53,212 bases of DNA. Source: Holophagaceae bacterium (GTDB lineage: Bacteria > Acidobacteriota > Holophagae > Holophagales > Holophagaceae). Within the stretch, counting starts at the first letter, position 1; each line of letters opens with the position of its first letter. The stretch is from assembly GCA_025350765.1 (NCBI GenBank), contig JANXXC010000221.1, forward strand, positions 1 through 53,212, written 5' to 3'. The notes below the pieces were generated by a model. That model searched no databases and was not told the DNA's origin. It saw only the letters and a list, made by a program, of their open reading frames with translations. This document shows, piece by piece, positions 631-4,572 of the stretch. Made by a program: the position numbers and the translations under genes.

Positions 631-1422
631 ATGGTGCTTCCTTCCTATCTTCGCTCCCTCCAGACTTGGCCCATGAAAACTGAAACGAATCCGGCCATGG
701 ATTTACTTCCTGCAGGGGTGGCGCAAAGCCTCCAGGAATTTCTAACCCAAGCTCAGCAGACCCTGGGCGCTTCCCTGCAGTCCATCTCGCTCTTCGGGAG
801 CGGAGCCGAGGGACGCCTCCGGGCCACTTCCGACCTCAACTTGCTGCTGGTACTCCGGGATCTCAACCCCTCGGCTCTGGAGAAGCTGCGGGAGCCCATG
901 CGACTGATGGAAACCCTACATCGAGCCCGCTTCTTGCTCCTGCTCACCGACGAAATGCCTGCAGCCCTTGAGGCCTTTCCCGACAAGTTCGCGGATATTT
1001 TCAGGCGGCATCAACGGCTTATCGGTTCGGACCCCTTCGAGGGGCTGAGCGTCGATCCCCGCCACCTCCGGCAGAAAATCTCCCAATCCTTTTTAAACCA
1101 GACCCTGAGGCTCAGGGAGGCCTATGTTTTGCGAAGCCTTCGAGAGGAACAGGCCGAACGGGCCCTCGCGGAGGCGACGGGTCCCCTGAGAAGCGAAGCC
1201 GCCAATCTCCTGGAGCTCGAGGGGCAAAATCTCGCTCCGAAAGAAGCCTTGGCCAAGATCGCCGCGGAACTTCCCGGGGGTCCCTGGGAAGACCTTTTGG
1301 ATGCCCTCTCCCAGGTCCGGGAAGGAGAAACGCTTCCGCCAGGCACCCCGCCAGCCTTCCTTCTTCGATTGGCTGATCTGGCCCAGCAACTTTACCGGCG
1401 CTCCCTGGAGGTCCGGTCTTGA
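631..1422 (+). CDS. Nucleotidyltransferase-fold (MNT/KNTase-like) domain protein
   Basis: 263-aa ORF with an N-terminal LFGSGAEGRLRATSDLNLLLVL motif (G-S-x10-D-h-N-h, NTase-like). Its stop overlaps the next start (TTGA at 1419-1422). Confidence 0.6.
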   Translation: MVLPSYLRSLQTWPMKTETNPAMDLLPAGVAQSLQEFLTQAQQTLGASLQSISLFGSGAEGRLRATSDLNLLLVLRDLNPSALEKLREPMRLMETLHRARFLLLLTDEMPAALEAFPDKFADIFRRHQRLIGSDPFEGLSVDPRHLRQKISQSFLNQTLRLREAYVLRSLREEQAERALAEATGPLRSEAANLLELEGQNLAPKEALAKIAAELPGGPWEDLLDALSQVREGETLPPGTPPAFLLRLADLAQQLYRRSLEVRS

Positions 1423-2324
1423 ATCCGCTTGATCTTCGAGGTCCCGAATTCCTGGTTTTCTACATCCTGATCGTTAGCACTGGATCCGGAATTCTCTGGA
1501 TGCTCCGCCGCGCGCAGGAGGGCGGTTCTGTTCCGCGCCTGGATGTCTCCGACCCCTTCCTTCTGGCTTTTCTGCGGGGAGGAAAGGCGGAAATGCTCCG
1601 GGTGGGGCTGTTCTCACTGGTCGATCGAGGCCTCTTTATGCTCGTCGGCGGTGGGGCCCAATTGGTGATTGCCGAACCCATGGCCGCTGAAAAAGTTCGG
1701 CGTCCCCTGGAAAAGGAATTGCTGCGCAAATTCAACGAGGCCCATGCTCCCCAATCTGTCCTGACGGTTTCTAGTCCCATCCTGGATGGGGACGAATACC
1801 AACAAACCCTAGAAAGCCTCCAGCTCCTTCCGGATGAATCCCAGAAGGCTCGACGGGTTTGGCTCTTCATCATCGGGGCCCTTGGCCTGGGCGGCTTGGC
1901 TGCGGTGAAGGTGTTTGTCGCCCTATCCCGGGGAAGATCGAATGTGGGTTTTCTCATCATTCTGGGTGCCCTCTCGCTGGTGCTGGTGGGCGCGGTGCTT
2001 TTCCCGCGCAGGACCTCTCTCGGCTCCAGGGCCTTGGAGGATCTCCAAAGGCTCACCCAACCCATGAAGGGCCGTGCGGCCAGCCTACAGCCTGGTGGGG
2101 GCACCGCCGAAGCTGTGCTGCTCGCGGCAATCTTCGGGTTTTACACCCTTCCAAGCGCCTTCTCCTACCTCACCCTTCTTTTCCCTCCCCGCCGTTCATC
2201 CTCCTTTGGGTCTAATAGCGGAACCTCCTGTGGATCTGCTAGCGGAACCTCGTGTGGGTCTGCGGGCGGGTCATCCTGCGGCGGCGGCGGATGCGGCGGT
2301 GGGTGTGGAGGCTGCGGGTCATGA
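1419..2324 (+). CDS. TIGR04222-type multi-pass membrane protein with C-terminal Ser/Gly/Cys-rich tail
   Basis: N-terminus MNPLDLRGPEFLVFYILIV...DPFLLAFLRGGKAEMLRVGLFSLVDRG matches my recollection of the TIGR04222 domain. There are about 4 hydrophobic segments. The tail is ...SGTSCGSASGTSCGSAGGSSCGGGGCGGGCGGCGS. TTG start overlaps the upstream stop. Confidence 0.75.
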   Translation: MNPLDLRGPEFLVFYILIVSTGSGILWMLRRAQEGGSVPRLDVSDPFLLAFLRGGKAEMLRVGLFSLVDRGLFMLVGGGAQLVIAEPMAAEKVRRPLEKELLRKFNEAHAPQSVLTVSSPILDGDEYQQTLESLQLLPDESQKARRVWLFIIGALGLGGLAAVKVFVALSRGRSNVGFLIILGALSLVLVGAVLFPRRTSLGSRALEDLQRLTQPMKGRAASLQPGGGTAEAVLLAAIFGFYTLPSAFSYLTLLFPPRRSSSFGSNSGTSCGSASGTSCGSAGGSSCGGGGCGGGCGGCGS

Positions 2325-3172
2325 ACGATCGATTCGGGATTGGCTGGCGGCCAGAACTCAGCGCTGGCCTGCTGGCCCATGGCGAGCAGATGGATCTCAC
2401 CGAGCTCATTTTGGAGGACGCCGCGGCGGCTTCTCCACGCCACCACCGCGCCTACCGGACCCTTGCCTCCCAGGTGCCATTCTGGTTGCATGGCACTAGC
2501 CTGGGCATGGCCTCCACCTTTCCCTCGGACGAGAAAAGGCTGGCCCGCTGTGCGCGGATGGTGGAAGTCATTGGCCCCGAAGGGTGGAGCGAACACTTGG
2601 CCTTTGTTCGGGTTCCGGGCATTGAAATCGGCCACCTAGCGGCTCCTCCCCGCACCCTGGAGACCGCGGAGGGAGCTGCGCAAAATCTACGACGGGCCGC
2701 GCGGATTGTGGGCAGTCTGCCCCTCGTCGAGAACGTCGCCTCCCTGATGAGGCCCCCAGGAAGCACTCTTCCGGAAGCCGAATGGATCCGTTTGATCCTG
2801 GAAGCCAGCGGCGCGGAACTGTTATTAGATCTCCATAATCTGTACGCCAATGCCATGAACGAAGGGGAGGATCCGACCCAGCGACTATTGGCTTTCCCTC
2901 TGGACCGAGTGGGCCAGGTGCACGTGGCGGGGGGACGGTGGATCGGGGCGCCCGGAGCGTTGAAGCGGCTGGACGATCACCTCCATCCCACCCCCCCGGA
3001 GGTCTACGGCCTCTTGGAGACCCTTGCGAAAGTCCACCCAGGCCCGCTCAACGTGGTCCTGGAGCGGGATGGAGCTTATCCCGCCATTCCGGATCTCCTG
3101 GCCGAATTGGAGCTTGCACGGGAGGCAGTAGTCCGGGGAAGACAGCGCCGAGTTCTGGAGGCCGCGTCATGA
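2321..3172 (+). CDS. DUF692 / MNIO family (MbnB/TglH/HvfB-like multinuclear non-heme iron) protein
   Basis: Starts MNDRFGIGWRPEL. Family-typical motifs are present (WLHGTSLG, WSEHLAF, PLVENV, LLLDLHNLYANAMN, VGQVHVAGG, LDDHLHP). The ATG at 2321 overlaps the upstream TGA (ATGA). The track ORF 2252..3172 is an upstream extension in the same frame. Confidence 0.85.
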   Translation: MNDRFGIGWRPELSAGLLAHGEQMDLTELILEDAAAASPRHHRAYRTLASQVPFWLHGTSLGMASTFPSDEKRLARCARMVEVIGPEGWSEHLAFVRVPGIEIGHLAAPPRTLETAEGAAQNLRRAARIVGSLPLVENVASLMRPPGSTLPEAEWIRLILEASGAELLLDLHNLYANAMNEGEDPTQRLLAFPLDRVGQVHVAGGRWIGAPGALKRLDDHLHPTPPEVYGLLETLAKVHPGPLNVVLERDGAYPAIPDLLAELELAREAVVRGRQRRVLEAAS

Positions 3173-3411
3173 GCCAGGCACTGGAGCGTCTCCTGGCGAT
3201 GATCTATACGGATTCCGCGGCCCTGGAACGCTTCCTGGCAGATCCTATCACCGAGGCTTTGGGCGCCGGGTGCACGAAGGAAGAAGCCGCGCGCCTTGAA
3301 GCCCCTGATGCATCAGGTTTACGGTTGGCTCACCAAAGTTTCCACCGGAAAAGGACGTTGAAGCACGCTCTCTCGTCAAAAGTCTGGTGGCGATGGTTGA
3401 TGGGCCGTTGA
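3169..3411 (+). CDS. Small (80 aa) helical protein, function unknown, coupled to the DUF692 gene
   Basis: The ATG at 3169 overlaps the DUF692 stop (ATGA). It is in frame with track ORF 2938..3411. The sequence MSQALERLLAMIYTDSAALERFLADPITEALGAGCTKEEAARLE has a LigA-subunit/NHLP-leader-like helical flavour, which is only a weak impression. Confidence 0.5.
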   Translation: MSQALERLLAMIYTDSAALERFLADPITEALGAGCTKEEAARLEAPDASGLRLAHQSFHRKRTLKHALSSKVWWRWLMGR

Positions 3412-3600: not shown

Positions 3601-4572
3601 TCAGAAGACCTCCTTAATACCTCGTACGGGAGCCGCGGCCTCCCTGTGAAAGGTCCTCGCCCAATCCTTGGGCAGAAAGAACACCTGGGCCTTGCGGTTC
3701 CGCAAGAAAACCAGTGAATCCCAGATAAGGCCTTGGTCGACACGGAGTGGATCAAGAGGCCCTTCATCCAGGGCCACGGTTTTGGGCTTGAGAAGGCCGC
3801 GATAGATGAAATTCCAACGGCCTTGGAGGTGCACCAGGTATCCATCCTTCAAGCGCGGGGCGCCCTTCACTTGGCGGGCAAAAGCGCGCACCACGTGGTC
3901 GCTGCCCAAGGGATCCAATTCGAGGATGGCCAGCTCCGCCCATTGGGGCACTTCATGGCGCCCGGCTCGCCGCACCCAGGACATGATGCGCCCGGCGAAG
4001 CCCACCAGCAGGAAATGCAGCACCCGGAAGAGCAGCGGCAGCATGAGCGCGATGAGCAGAATGAGCGCCACCAGCACTGGGATGGCAATGGTGGGATGGC
4101 TGTACGCCAGGGCCAGTAGGCCCACCACGCCCACGTCTTCGGCCACGCTGATGAGGCCGTGAGTGGTGGGCTCCGGCGCCGTGTGGGCCATGAGGCGAAT
4201 GCCCATCTTGGTGCCGTGGGTGCCCAGGGCGATGGTGCCGCCGGCGAGCATGGCGATGACCTGTACCGTGGGGTGCAGATCCCCGGCGGCCGCGAGTGCC
4301 AACAATGCGCCGCCGACGGGCCGCACGAAGGTGTGGATGCCATCCCAAATCACCGTGACAAAGGGCACCTTGTCCGCGAAGAATTCGATGAGGAAGAGCA
4401 GGCCTGCGGCGATGAGCACCGCCGGATGGGACAGCACATGGAGTTCAGAAGGAAGGCCGCTGATCCAATGAAAGCGTTCCGCCAGGCCCACCGTCAGCAC
4501 CGCGAGGTAGAGGTTGATGCCCGAGACCACGGAGAGCCCGAGGATCCCAGCGAGGGTGGAAAGAGGAGCCAC
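3601..4572 (-). CDS. DUF4126-like membrane protein with extra ~130-aa C-terminal soluble domain
   Basis: 323-aa ORF with a GTG start. The N-terminal half is polytopic (LGLSVVSGINLYLAVLTVGL..., FADKVPFVTVIWDGIHTFVRPVGGALLA), typical of DUF4126. The C-terminal half is non-hydrophobic. Confidence 0.65.
   Translation of the reverse strand: MAPLSTLAGILGLSVVSGINLYLAVLTVGLAERFHWISGLPSELHVLSHPAVLIAAGLLFLIEFFADKVPFVTVIWDGIHTFVRPVGGALLALAAAGDLHPTVQVIAMLAGGTIALGTHGTKMGIRLMAHTAPEPTTHGLISVAEDVGVVGLLALAYSHPTIAIPVLVALILLIALMLPLLFRVLHFLLVGFAGRIMSWVRRAGRHEVPQWAELAILELDPLGSDHVVRAFARQVKGAPRLKDGYLVHLQGRWNFIYRGLLKPKTVALDEGPLDPLRVDQGLIWDSLVFLRNRKAQVFFLPKDWARTFHREAAAPVRGIKEVF

Follow-up and report, generated by a model that had tools for sequence, protein, structure and literature searches.

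A conserved Cys-Gly-rich tail on a TIGR04222 membrane protein of Holophagaceae, probably modified by a neighbouring MNIO enzyme

A stretch of 53,212 nucleotides from a Holophagaceae bacterium (JANXXC010000221.1, hereafter the window) contains a compact set of genes which poses a question: Why does an integral membrane protein end in a disordered tail in which every Cys is followed by Gly, immediately before the gene for an enzyme of the MNIO (DUF692) family? The set forms a four-gene cassette on the plus strand, in the order nucleotidyltransferase-like (NTase-like), TIGR04222, MNIO and an 80-aa protein resembling LigA and Nif11, with 4-nt overlaps of start and stop codons joining each gene to the next (1419-1422, 2321-2324 and 3169-3172). 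We argue that the MNIO, an iron enzyme, probably turns the tail of its neighbour into ring structures that bind metal. A scan for promoters and terminators between 400 and 3800 gave nothing above shuffled expectation, and an Rfam search of the window returned no matches.

The protein carrying the tail, encoded at 1419-2324, has 301 aa and matches the NCBIfam model TIGR04222 ('near_uncomplex') with 83.9 bits, the cut-off being 43; residues 14-244 cover positions 1-228 of the 229 in the model and are followed by a low-complexity region of Gly, Ser and Cys at residues 257-301. Because homologues align from residue 1 of the 301-aa form, their comparison supports the TTG start at 1419 over the ATG of the gene caller, which yields a 274-aa product (P0001); an independent metagenome contig (L075), identical across the whole TIGR04222 gene, carries the 301-aa call. 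Hydropathy delineates a first transmembrane helix at residues 9-29, a soluble domain at about 45-135 and two further helices at 147-168 and 176-197. Residues 231-256 are weakly hydrophobic (KD19 of 1.57 vs 2.5-2.7 for the three helices) and are modelled by AlphaFold2 as a 10-residue helix plus turns (pLDDT of the whole model, 79). Counts of Lys plus Arg place the N-terminus outside and the loop 198-230 inside, and the tail would be periplasmic only if segment 231-256 spans the membrane. Since this fourth hydrophobic segment is weak, a cytoplasmic tail appears at least as likely as a periplasmic one; with a periplasmic tail, modification would be needed before translocation. No Sec signal peptide is recognizable, the protein having three firm transmembrane helices and no cluster of positive charges in its first 8 residues. 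Foldseek retrieved no meaningful match in the PDB for the model (TM <=0.17). The family is large: 3,061 of the 8,000 candidates that we scored gave TIGR04222 hits at E <= 0.001, and more than 3,500 non-redundant sequences have been reported (PMC12452194).

The tail itself (residues 257-301, at 2187-2321 on the plus strand) is composed of 38% Gly, 29% Ser and 13% Cys, and residues 259-298 are disordered in the AlphaFold2 model (pLDDT <50). Read directly from the DNA, the open reading frame ends in TSCGSASGTSCGSAGGSSCGGGGCGGGCGGCGS, and the terminal residues before the stop are PRRSSSFGSNSGTSCGSASGTSCGSAGGSSCGGGGCGGGCGGCGS. All the Cys of the protein lie here (271, 279, 287, 292, 296 and 299), and each precedes a Gly, three times within SCG and then three times within GCG, exactly as the earlier note on this DNA had read them; the chance of finding six out of six from the composition of the tail alone is about 0.003. 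Tandem Repeats Finder places an array with a 24-nt (8-codon) unit, in 2.2-2.7 copies, at 2200-2269 on the plus strand. Its two central units, at 2217-2240 (AGCGGAACCTCCTGTGGATCTGCT) and 2241-2264 (AGCGGAACCTCGTGTGGGTCTGCG), start in frame with the ORF, both encode SGTSCGSA and differ only in the third base of three codons (TCC/TCG, GGA/GGG, GCT/GCG), which agrees with the repeat that had been noted. The claim that the repeat differs only at synonymous sites stands for these two units and fails for a degenerate copy upstream, which encodes SSFGSNSG and has TTT (Phe) where the others carry TGT (Cys); the rule is therefore limited to the central copies. Even for these, 20 of the 72 single-base changes possible in the unit are synonymous, which gives a probability of about 0.02 that none of three random changes alters the peptide: taken alone, the silent differences are suggestive, not strong, evidence of a translated frame. 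The duplication is absent from the closest homologue (P0002, 65% identity) and is, on this comparison, lineage-specific.

That the frame is translated, and that the peptide rather than the DNA is conserved, is instead borne out by the relatives, of which 120, at 40-67% identity, have the tail in common while the codons of its motif vary across 66 loci. The most conserved part is the terminal motif SSCGGGGCGGGCGGCGS (2271-2321, plus strand), with three GGCG sites. In the alignment of homologues the pattern SSC-GGGG-C-GGG-C-GG-C-G is invariant or nearly invariant, as are the columns S285-G300 in an alignment of 27 homologues (A1) whose bodies are about 45% identical; the codons of GGGCGGCG across the 66 loci, nevertheless, include all those for Gly and both for Cys, with third positions of the terminal motif saturated. 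Among 77 relatives picked by patterns in the body only, the tail playing no part in the choice, 457 of the 493 tail Cys precede Gly, as compared with 39.5% Gly in the composition, and the tail ends in CGGCG plus Gly or Ser in 73. The number of tail Cys varies from 4 to 9 among homologues, with the number of SCG units. Judged from these comparisons, the Cys-Gly-rich tail is real and strongly conserved. In evolutionary terms, the terminal CGGGGCGGGCGGCG block would have been fixed by selection, whereas the SCG units upstream would expand and contract by slippage, the 24-nt duplication at 2217-2264 representing one such event.

The next gene (2321-3172, plus strand), the ATG of which overlaps the TIGR04222 stop in ATGA, encodes an MNIO of 283 aa that matches PF05114 (MbnB_TglH_ChrH) with 191.2 bits (threshold 25), its residues 5-269 covering positions 2-261 of 263 in the model. 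It possesses the conserved motif set HG, EH, EN, LDxHN and HxAG in the form LHG, SEHL, VEN, LDLHNLY and HVAG, matching identical residues in 3bww and in TglH (8hi7); going by the structures of MbnB and TglH, we take these motifs to carry the iron ligands. Its best NCBIfam matches are BufB with 150.5 bits and HvfB with 119.2 bits, which lie below the respective equivalog cut-offs of 310 and 360, and by these scores the enzyme is a member of a subfamily distinct from the BufB and HvfB equivalogs. No protein of the cassette matched a DUF2063 (PME-type 1) partner in NCBIfam or Pfam. The association with the tail recurs widely: the MNIO directly follows the TIGR04222 gene, with start/stop overlaps, in 52 of the 54 tail-unbiased loci having enough flanking sequence. 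Among metagenome loci, a small protein comes after the MNIO in 43 out of 43 and an NTase-like gene lies upstream of TIGR04222 in 46 out of 51. The hosts of MNIO loci belong to Acidobacteriota, Burkholderiales and cyanobacteria.

The first gene of the cassette (631-1422, plus strand), which ends in a stop overlapping the TTG start of the TIGR04222 gene (TTGA), encodes the NTase-like protein of 263 aa. Its NCBIfam and Pfam matches to ANT/Pol-beta nucleotidyltransferases are weak, all the NCBIfam scores being far below cut-offs, and the profile of its family matches structures of ANT(3'')(9)/AadA at E 1.5e-5 over the NTase core only. The invariant residues of the family are G56 S57 ... S67 D68 x N70 and E108, with DxN replacing the DxD usual in the G-S ... 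D-x-D pattern of ANT/Pol-beta enzymes.

The last gene (3169-3411, plus strand), having an ATG that overlaps the MNIO stop in ATGA, encodes the 80-aa helical protein of LigA/Nif11/NHLP type. Searches with the single sequence found 3 proteins only, and the wider family was reached via a profile; its loci were counted by HMM, as tblastn at E 1e-3 under-detected them. Pfam LigA matches 16 and Frankia_peptide 13 of 20 members, Nif11 being matched too, and the family profile matches SonA at E 0.002. The AlphaFold2 model (pLDDT 86) has 6lk7, 8tb1 (a proteusin precursor) and SonA as best Foldseek matches; neither 3dee nor 8hi7 was retrieved, be it with the profile or with Foldseek. A leader-like domain is thus present, and there is no conserved Cys or core across the family: the part after a conserved S-x-x-x-K-R varies in length (median 26 aa, with some of 6-8 aa), Arg makes up 20% of the C-terminal extensions and Cys 0.8%, and 65 out of 145 representatives lack Cys altogether. 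The C-terminus of the 80-aa protein is a basic helix rich in Arg and Trp. Relatives of about 200 aa, on which PF26136 is the precomputed Pfam entry, add a C-terminal domain, giving the two-domain layout expected of a partner; against the PDB, their profile found nitrile hydratase alpha only. The 80-aa protein is a probable partner or adaptor of the MNIO, and it may correspond to the 'adjamnio-V' of PMC12452194.

The relatives lacking an MNIO create a puzzle of their own: What replaces the enzyme where the tail is retained? In some of them the adjacent place is taken by a radical SAM gene. In four loci (L011, L035, L043 and L046), which retain the NTase-like gene, the TIGR04222 gene and the CGGCG tail, the radical SAM/SPASM gene reaches 458-500 bits with the model TIGR04082 SbtM, above the curated cut-off of 350; in four others (L030, L044, L052 and L071), the radical SAM/SPASM gene belongs to a second clade. 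These proteins cover only positions 195-516 of the SbtM model, and a small protein of the 80-aa type accompanies none of the 8 radical SAM loci, the hosts of which are largely anaerobes (Kuenenia, Syntrophobacteraceae, an archaeon). The tail motif was one of the two search patterns in the genome scan that found these loci, which consequently does not inform on the frequency of relatives without the tail. SbtM is a thio(seleno)oxazole maturase acting on Gly-Cys/Sec in a GGUG motif (PMC9204691), and GGCG of the tail is the Cys form of that motif. Because two unrelated types of thiooxazole-forming enzyme adjoin the same tail, the latter is a likely multi-site substrate; the suggestion in the earlier note of a multi-site core region finds its support here, in the SbtM-type enzyme of MNIO-less relatives together with the MNIO of the 52 loci. 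Of 66 more distant relatives, about 13 retain the CGGCG tail and have no gene for an MNIO or a radical SAM enzyme within 6 kb, and the two recurrent clusters of neighbouring ORFs in loci with neither maturase gave no Pfam match.

How does this locus compare with known systems? The link between TIGR04222 and MNIO is not new, since it was independently proposed in silico in 2025 by the Jacob-Dubuisson group in Microb Genom (PMC12452194), from a sample composed mostly of Actinomycetota. The window has the arrangement of that class: a TIGR04222 protein without signal peptide but with an unstructured C-terminal Ser/Gly region containing Cys, its gene immediately before an MNIO close to those of bufferins and oxazolins, no DUF2063 gene and the tail as the proposed substrate. 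It differs in that the fourth hydrophobic segment is weak here, whereas a periplasmic tail was predicted there, and in the probable partner, which is a LigA/Nif11-like protein of 80 aa instead of the PME-type 2 (DUF2063-like) proteins of at least 10% of those clusters, structurally related to NGO1945 (3dee) and TglI (8hi7). The NTase-like gene and the radical SAM replacement are not mentioned in PMC12452194; more generally, in the papers searched we found no mention of a swap to SbtM, of an NTase-like partner or of a small protein resembling a leader.

The captophorins (bufferins, oxazolin/HvfA and fontiphorin) are 5-thiooxazole metallophores made by an MNIO with a PME-type 1 protein (PMC11626156, PMC13097082). 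Their BufB/HvfB/FonB-type enzymes form the 5-thiooxazole at the Cys of EGKCG repeats, FonB preferring a small residue after Cys (PMC13097082); what the earlier note says of Cys-Gly motifs is correct for substrates of the HvfA/oxazolin type. The present MNIO falls in the same broad clade and its putative substrate likewise has repeated Cys followed by a small residue; by analogy, the product would be a copper-binding 5-thiooxazole. Captophorin precursors, however, are small, secreted with Sec signal peptides and served by a DUF2063-RRE partner, while here the tail belongs to a polytopic membrane protein, with no DUF2063, DoxX or signal peptide, and Cys is preceded by Ser or Gly, not by Lys. In the SbtM/SbtA system (TIGR04082) studied in the Bandarian laboratory (PMC9204691), the substrate is a short selenopeptide of Geobacter/Desulfobacteria and not a membrane protein; the enzymes adjoining TIGR04222 genes lack the N-terminal 195 or so residues of the SbtM model, and the window itself contains no radical SAM gene. 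The 80-aa protein resembles the LigA/NHLP/Nif11 leaders, such as SonA and proteusin precursors, in its small helical fold and its sequence signature, and differs from them in having no conserved core, a basic end and a gene placed after that of the enzyme.

Other explanations have to be weighed against the tail being the substrate of the MNIO. One could regard the tail as a linker of low complexity, variable and free of selection on its Cys, and the repeat as an artefact of slippage, given the varying number of SCG units and the disorder in the model, but the near-invariance of the terminal motif across divergent bodies, the CGGCG ends of unbiased relatives and codons that vary freely where residues do not contradict this reading, which we reject as barely conceivable. 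Neither outcome against which the earlier note had staked its proposal has materialized, for MNIO-linked homologues do carry Cys tails and the positions of these Cys are under selection. The leader-like 80-aa protein could instead be the real RiPP precursor, and the membrane protein an accessory, serving for instance in export or immunity; the resemblance of the small protein to SonA and other leaders in sequence and fold, as well as its strict co-occurrence with the MNIO, speak for this, and yet it has no conserved core, its extensions are rich in Arg and poor in Cys, its longer relatives look like partners and the radical SAM loci dispense with it while keeping the Cys tail. We have rejected this possibility too and consider it very improbable.

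Two further readings, which seem to us unlikely to about the same degree, deserve a closer look. The Cys-Gly tail might act unmodified as a metal-binding, Fe-S or redox-active motif, the MNIO working elsewhere or only assisting: the distant relatives with a tail and no nearby maturase gene would fit, and so would DUF2207_C-like bodies, which occur widely together with Gly-rich tails. Because one third of TIGR04222-bearing genomes are without any MNIO (PMC12452194), the tail may indeed also work unmodified. Against this alternative stand the adjacency of the MNIO, with overlapping genes, in nearly all the close tail-unbiased loci, the swap to a second type of Cys-modifying maturase, which is difficult to account for with any target but the tail, and the lack, within the operon, of a further candidate substrate containing Cys. 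Alternatively, the tail is an MNIO substrate undergoing another chemistry, be it the oxazolone-thioamide of methanobactin, a thioamide or crosslink, or a TglH-like excision of the beta-carbon. Since the enzyme scores under the cut-offs of both BufB and HvfB, its chemistry could differ from theirs; its partner is not a DUF2063 protein, and MNIOs are chemically diverse (PMC12452194). However, BufB and HvfB remain its best family matches, the replacement enzyme passes the cut-off of SbtM, which makes thio(seleno)oxazole at Gly-Cys, and several earlier assignments of oxazolone-thioamide have been revised to 5-thiooxazole (PMC13097082).

On balance, we slightly favour the view that the tail serves as the substrate region in a RiPP-like system of protein size, modified by the MNIO to 5-thiooxazoles, even if no demonstrated modification of any TIGR04222 protein was found in the literature. 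The TIGR04222 protein would be anchored by its three firm helices and offer the disordered tail of about 45 residues to a cytoplasmic MNIO; this would act with the LigA-like small protein, the Arg/Trp-rich helix of which probably tethers the MNIO to the face of the membrane. Each x-Cys-Gly would then undergo a four-electron oxidation to a 5-thiooxazole ring, formed by the Cys together with the carbonyl of the Ser or Gly before it, a chemistry we propose because the nearest characterised relatives, BufB, HvfB and FonB, perform it; up to six modified sites would amount to -24 Da in total. In anaerobic lineages, the oxygen-independent SbtM-type radical SAM enzyme would do the same job on the same tail. 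The product, more speculatively, could be a membrane-tethered row of thiolate-bearing heterocycles binding copper or another soft metal. Considerably more tentative is the joint reading of all components: a membrane-anchored class in which a (S/G)-Cys-Gly array becomes a multi-thiooxazole metal site, with an interchangeable maturase (MNIO in aerobes, SbtM-type in anaerobes), the small protein as an in-trans adaptor for membrane targeting, the NTase-like protein with its DxN as a fourth component and a tail that is maybe cytoplasmic.

TIGR04222 proteins are abundant, yet none has been characterised. If the proposed modification is true, they would be the first integral membrane proteins to undergo thiooxazole chemistry, and RiPP-type maturation would reach beyond secreted peptides to a multi-site appendage that is anchored in the membrane and binds metal. 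The swap between MNIO and SbtM leads to a concrete prediction for the product, which should show -4 Da for each Cys and absorb at 302-305 nm, and would exemplify convergent aerobic and anaerobic routes to one modification, while the NTase-like gene and the leader-like small protein provide new handles on how MNIOs recognize a leaderless substrate.

The forward strand of the window carries four genes whose starts and stops overlap throughout and which therefore form one cassette: an NTase-like gene of 263 aa (631-1422), overlapping the TTG start of the gene for the TIGR04222 'near_uncomplex' membrane protein (1419-2324; 83.9 bits, cut-off 43); the gene for the DUF692 iron enzyme, or MNIO (2321-3172; PF05114, 191 bits), whose ATG overlaps the TIGR04222 stop; and an 80-aa ORF (3169-3411), here called the small protein, whose ATG overlaps the MNIO stop. 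The database copy of the window protein, P0001 (274 aa), begins at an internal ATG, at 1500 instead of 1419; the TTG at 1419 (MNPLDLRGPEF...), overlapping the stop codon of the preceding gene, is the likelier start in view of the homologues and the TIGR04222 model. For the MNIO, the mechanical ORF (2252-3172, forward strand) opens with a GTG at 2252 that falls within the coding region of the tail, in a different frame; homologues and the Pfam model agree better with the ATG at 2321 and its ATGA overlap. A DUF4126 membrane protein gene (3601-4572, reverse strand; 162 bits) converges on the cassette end and is probably unrelated, since none was found beside the cassette in any related locus. The body of the window protein is weakly similar to DUF2207_C (PF20990; 13.6 bits) and some homologues reach up to 38.5 bits (P0003, P0010, P0046), which connects TIGR04222 with the large family of DUF2207 membrane proteins.

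The 301-residue TIGR04222 product terminates in PRRSSSFGSNSGTSCGSASGTSCGSAGGSSCGGGGCGGGCGGCGS. Its only cysteines, 271, 279, 287, 292, 296 and 299, are all followed by glycine, as the earlier note had reported for the tail; tail composition by itself would give six out of six with a probability of about 0.003. The same note had described a tandem 24-nt repeat with synonymous differences only, and this holds for the two central copies, 2217-2240 and 2241-2264, which differ at three positions, every one third-codon, and both encode SGTSCGSA (with 20 of the 72 single-base changes in the unit being synonymous, three silent changes have P ~0.02). The array begins at 2200, however, with 2.2-2.7 copies according to Tandem Repeats Finder, and its degenerate upstream copy encodes SSFGSNSG, in which Phe (TTT) replaces the Cys (TGT) of the other copies, so that the statement is limited to the central pair. 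The duplication is lineage-specific, since it is missing from the closest homologue (65% identity); an independent contig, L075, carries a gene identical to the window's TIGR04222 gene.

A Ser/Gly/Cys-rich tail is present in all 120 homologues compared (40-67% identity), in which 745 of 822 tail cysteines precede glycine. The upstream SCG units vary in number (4-9 Cys among homologues), and in an alignment of 27 sequences the block S-S-C-G-G-G-G-C-G-G-G-C-G-G-C-G shows little or no variation, against an average body identity of ~45% to the window protein. Because the first genome scan included the tail motif among its search patterns, the scan of metagenome contigs was repeated with the alignment cut before the tail and the patterns NP[FL]DL[RP]GP[EQ] and DPYL[IL]A[YF]LR. 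In this tail-unbiased set, at least three tail cysteines occur in 77 of 78 complete genes, the remaining one looking frameshifted; glycine follows 457 of the 493 cysteines, against a Gly composition of 39.5%, and precedes 253 of them, serine preceding 225; and CGGCG plus G or S ends the tail in 73 of 77. These counts are drawn from related sequences, and binomial figures overstate their independence. Every Gly codon and both Cys codons are in use in the motif, so it is the peptide that is conserved and not the DNA. The tail is under selection, and both the homologues and the codon variety bear out the earlier claim of a translated frame with a conserved peptide.

Of the 54 loci in the tail-unbiased set that extend at least 1 kb downstream, 52 have the MNIO gene as the immediate next gene, and in one further locus it lies elsewhere in the fetched sequence; the small protein comes after the MNIO in 43/43 cases, and the NTase-like gene lies upstream in 46 of 51. 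Hosts of the cassette include Acidobacteriota, Binatia, Alpha- and Betaproteobacteria, Leptospirales, Polyangia, Planctomycetota, Cyanobacteria and others. In one locus (L028:6001-7737) the TIGR04222 frame of 578 aa ends in MNIO sequence, which reflects a genuine gene fusion or else a frameshift introduced by assembly, and in L082 the tail appears to be frameshifted. Some 13 distant relatives have retained the tail, and no maturase gene lies within 6 kb of it. Four distant loci with a CGGCG tail and no maturase gene (L049, L065, L068, L072) share a recurrent ORF directly upstream of the TIGR04222 gene, ~180-215 aa in three of them and much longer in L068; it has no Pfam match, and its coding strand is uncertain (shadow ORFs).

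In eight distant MNIO-less loci, found in the scan biased towards the tail motif, a radical SAM/SPASM gene adjoins the TIGR04222 gene. Four of these genes (L011:6852-7982, L043:6785-7906, L046:5739-6755 and L035:6927-7955, the last on the reverse strand) score 458-500 bits with TIGR04082, the model for the thio(seleno)oxazole maturase SbtM (curated cut-off 350), while covering model positions 195-516 only, the N-terminal ~195 residues being missing; in their loci the NTase-like gene and the CGGCG tail are retained and the small protein is absent. The other four (L030, L044, L052, L071) form a second clade, of which L030 was scanned and again matched SbtM best, below cut-off. SbtM forms its thio(seleno)oxazole from the Gly-Cys or Gly-Sec of a conserved GGUG motif (PMC9204691), and GGCG occurs three times in the window tail. 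MNIOs of the BufB, HvfB and FonB type form 5-thiooxazoles at the Cys of EGKCG-type repeats, with a small residue preferred after Cys (PMC13097082; PMC11626156), so the Cys-Gly motifs that the earlier note named for MNIO targets do occur in these repeats (PMC13097082). By homology, two unrelated enzyme families with one known product share the position beside the same tail, which is strong comparative evidence for the tail cysteines as the predicted target and a thiooxazole as the predicted product. The original observation on the tail is confirmed, and its reading as a multi-site core region gains support from the adjacent MNIO and its SbtM-type replacement. Judging from organism names only, hosts of the radical SAM loci are largely anaerobes (Kuenenia, Syntrophobacteraceae, an archaeon), whereas those of MNIO loci belong to aerobic or oxygenic groups; this would fit a split by lifestyle between an oxygen-dependent MNIO and an oxygen-independent SbtM-type enzyme.

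The NTase-like gene is found together with TIGR04222 whichever maturase type is present; in L052 its place is after the radical SAM gene. The match of its family profile to ANT(3'')(9)/AadA adenylyltransferases (E 1.5e-5) is confined to the NTase core. Within the family G-S ... S-D-x-N is invariant and a Glu is conserved; compared with the catalytic D-x-D, the second catalytic Asp is thus Asn. The small-protein family numbers 1,279 representatives at E <= 1e-3, with the consensus LEAFLARLYTDxxARxRFLADPxxEAxxAGLxxxExxALxxIDRxGLxLAAxSFxxKR. Pfam matches of its members (LigA 16/20, Frankia_peptide 13/20, Nif11 5/20), a profile match to the LigA-domain RiPP precursor SonA (E 0.002) and an AF2 model (pLDDT 86) closest to 6lk7, the proteusin precursor 8tb1 and SonA (TM ~0.5-0.6, weak E-values) point to a RiPP-leader-like fold, the fold matches being weak; the model did not retrieve NGO1945 (3dee) or TglI (8hi7). 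That the small protein is itself a RiPP precursor is disfavoured by what lies beyond the conserved S-x-x-x-K-R, a remainder of variable length (median 26 aa) with 20% Arg, 4.4% Trp and 0.8% Cys, 65 of 145 representatives being Cys-free, and by ~200-aa relatives carrying an extra C-terminal domain, labelled PF26136, in the manner of partner proteins. The window's small protein terminates in an Arg/Trp-rich helix, KVWWRWLMGR, which looks like a membrane-interface anchor; the protein is probably an adaptor keeping the MNIO at the membrane beside its tethered putative substrate.

On which side of the membrane that putative substrate is presented depends on a single segment. Across the 120 homologues, segments 9-29, 147-168 and 176-197 are strongly hydrophobic (mean KD19 2.5-2.7) and segment 231-256 weakly so (1.57). 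Mean K+R is 0.3 before TM1, 3.1 in the 15 residues after it, 3.1 in the 15 before TM2, 1.9 in the TM2-TM3 loop, 4.5 in loop 198-230 and 1.6 after segment 231-256, a distribution that favours an N-terminus on the outside and an inside location for both the soluble domain and loop 198-230. Were 231-256 to span the membrane, the tail would be periplasmic, as predicted for other TIGR04222 family members (PMC12452194); were it re-entrant or interfacial, the tail would be cytoplasmic, within direct reach of the MNIO or radical SAM enzyme. For 231-256 AF2 gives a 10-residue helix followed by short turns, with no membrane-spanning helix, and it shows the tail itself as disordered.

A 2025 in silico description (PMC12452194) already contains the link between TIGR04222 and MNIO, the Ser/Gly tails rich in Cys and the hypothesis that they are the substrate; it also reports that C-proximal Cys is missing from over a quarter of TIGR04222 proteins, and an MNIO from a third of the genomes with TIGR04222. 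It makes no mention of a radical SAM/SbtM, nucleotidyltransferase or LigA/Nif11-like partner for these clusters, and the literature searched contained no experiments on TIGR04222 tails; the locus adds one more member to a class described bioinformatically and experimentally untouched. Unlike captophorin/bufferin clusters, the window cassette has neither DUF2063 partner nor signal peptide, and its MNIO, best matched by BufB and HvfB, falls below each equivalog cut-off (with conserved motifs intact in comparison with 3bww and TglH); it is therefore not such a cluster in the strict sense, and by analogy it would probably work like one. To this picture the present analysis adds two conserved accessory genes and the MNIO/SbtM swap, from which the chemistry can be predicted.
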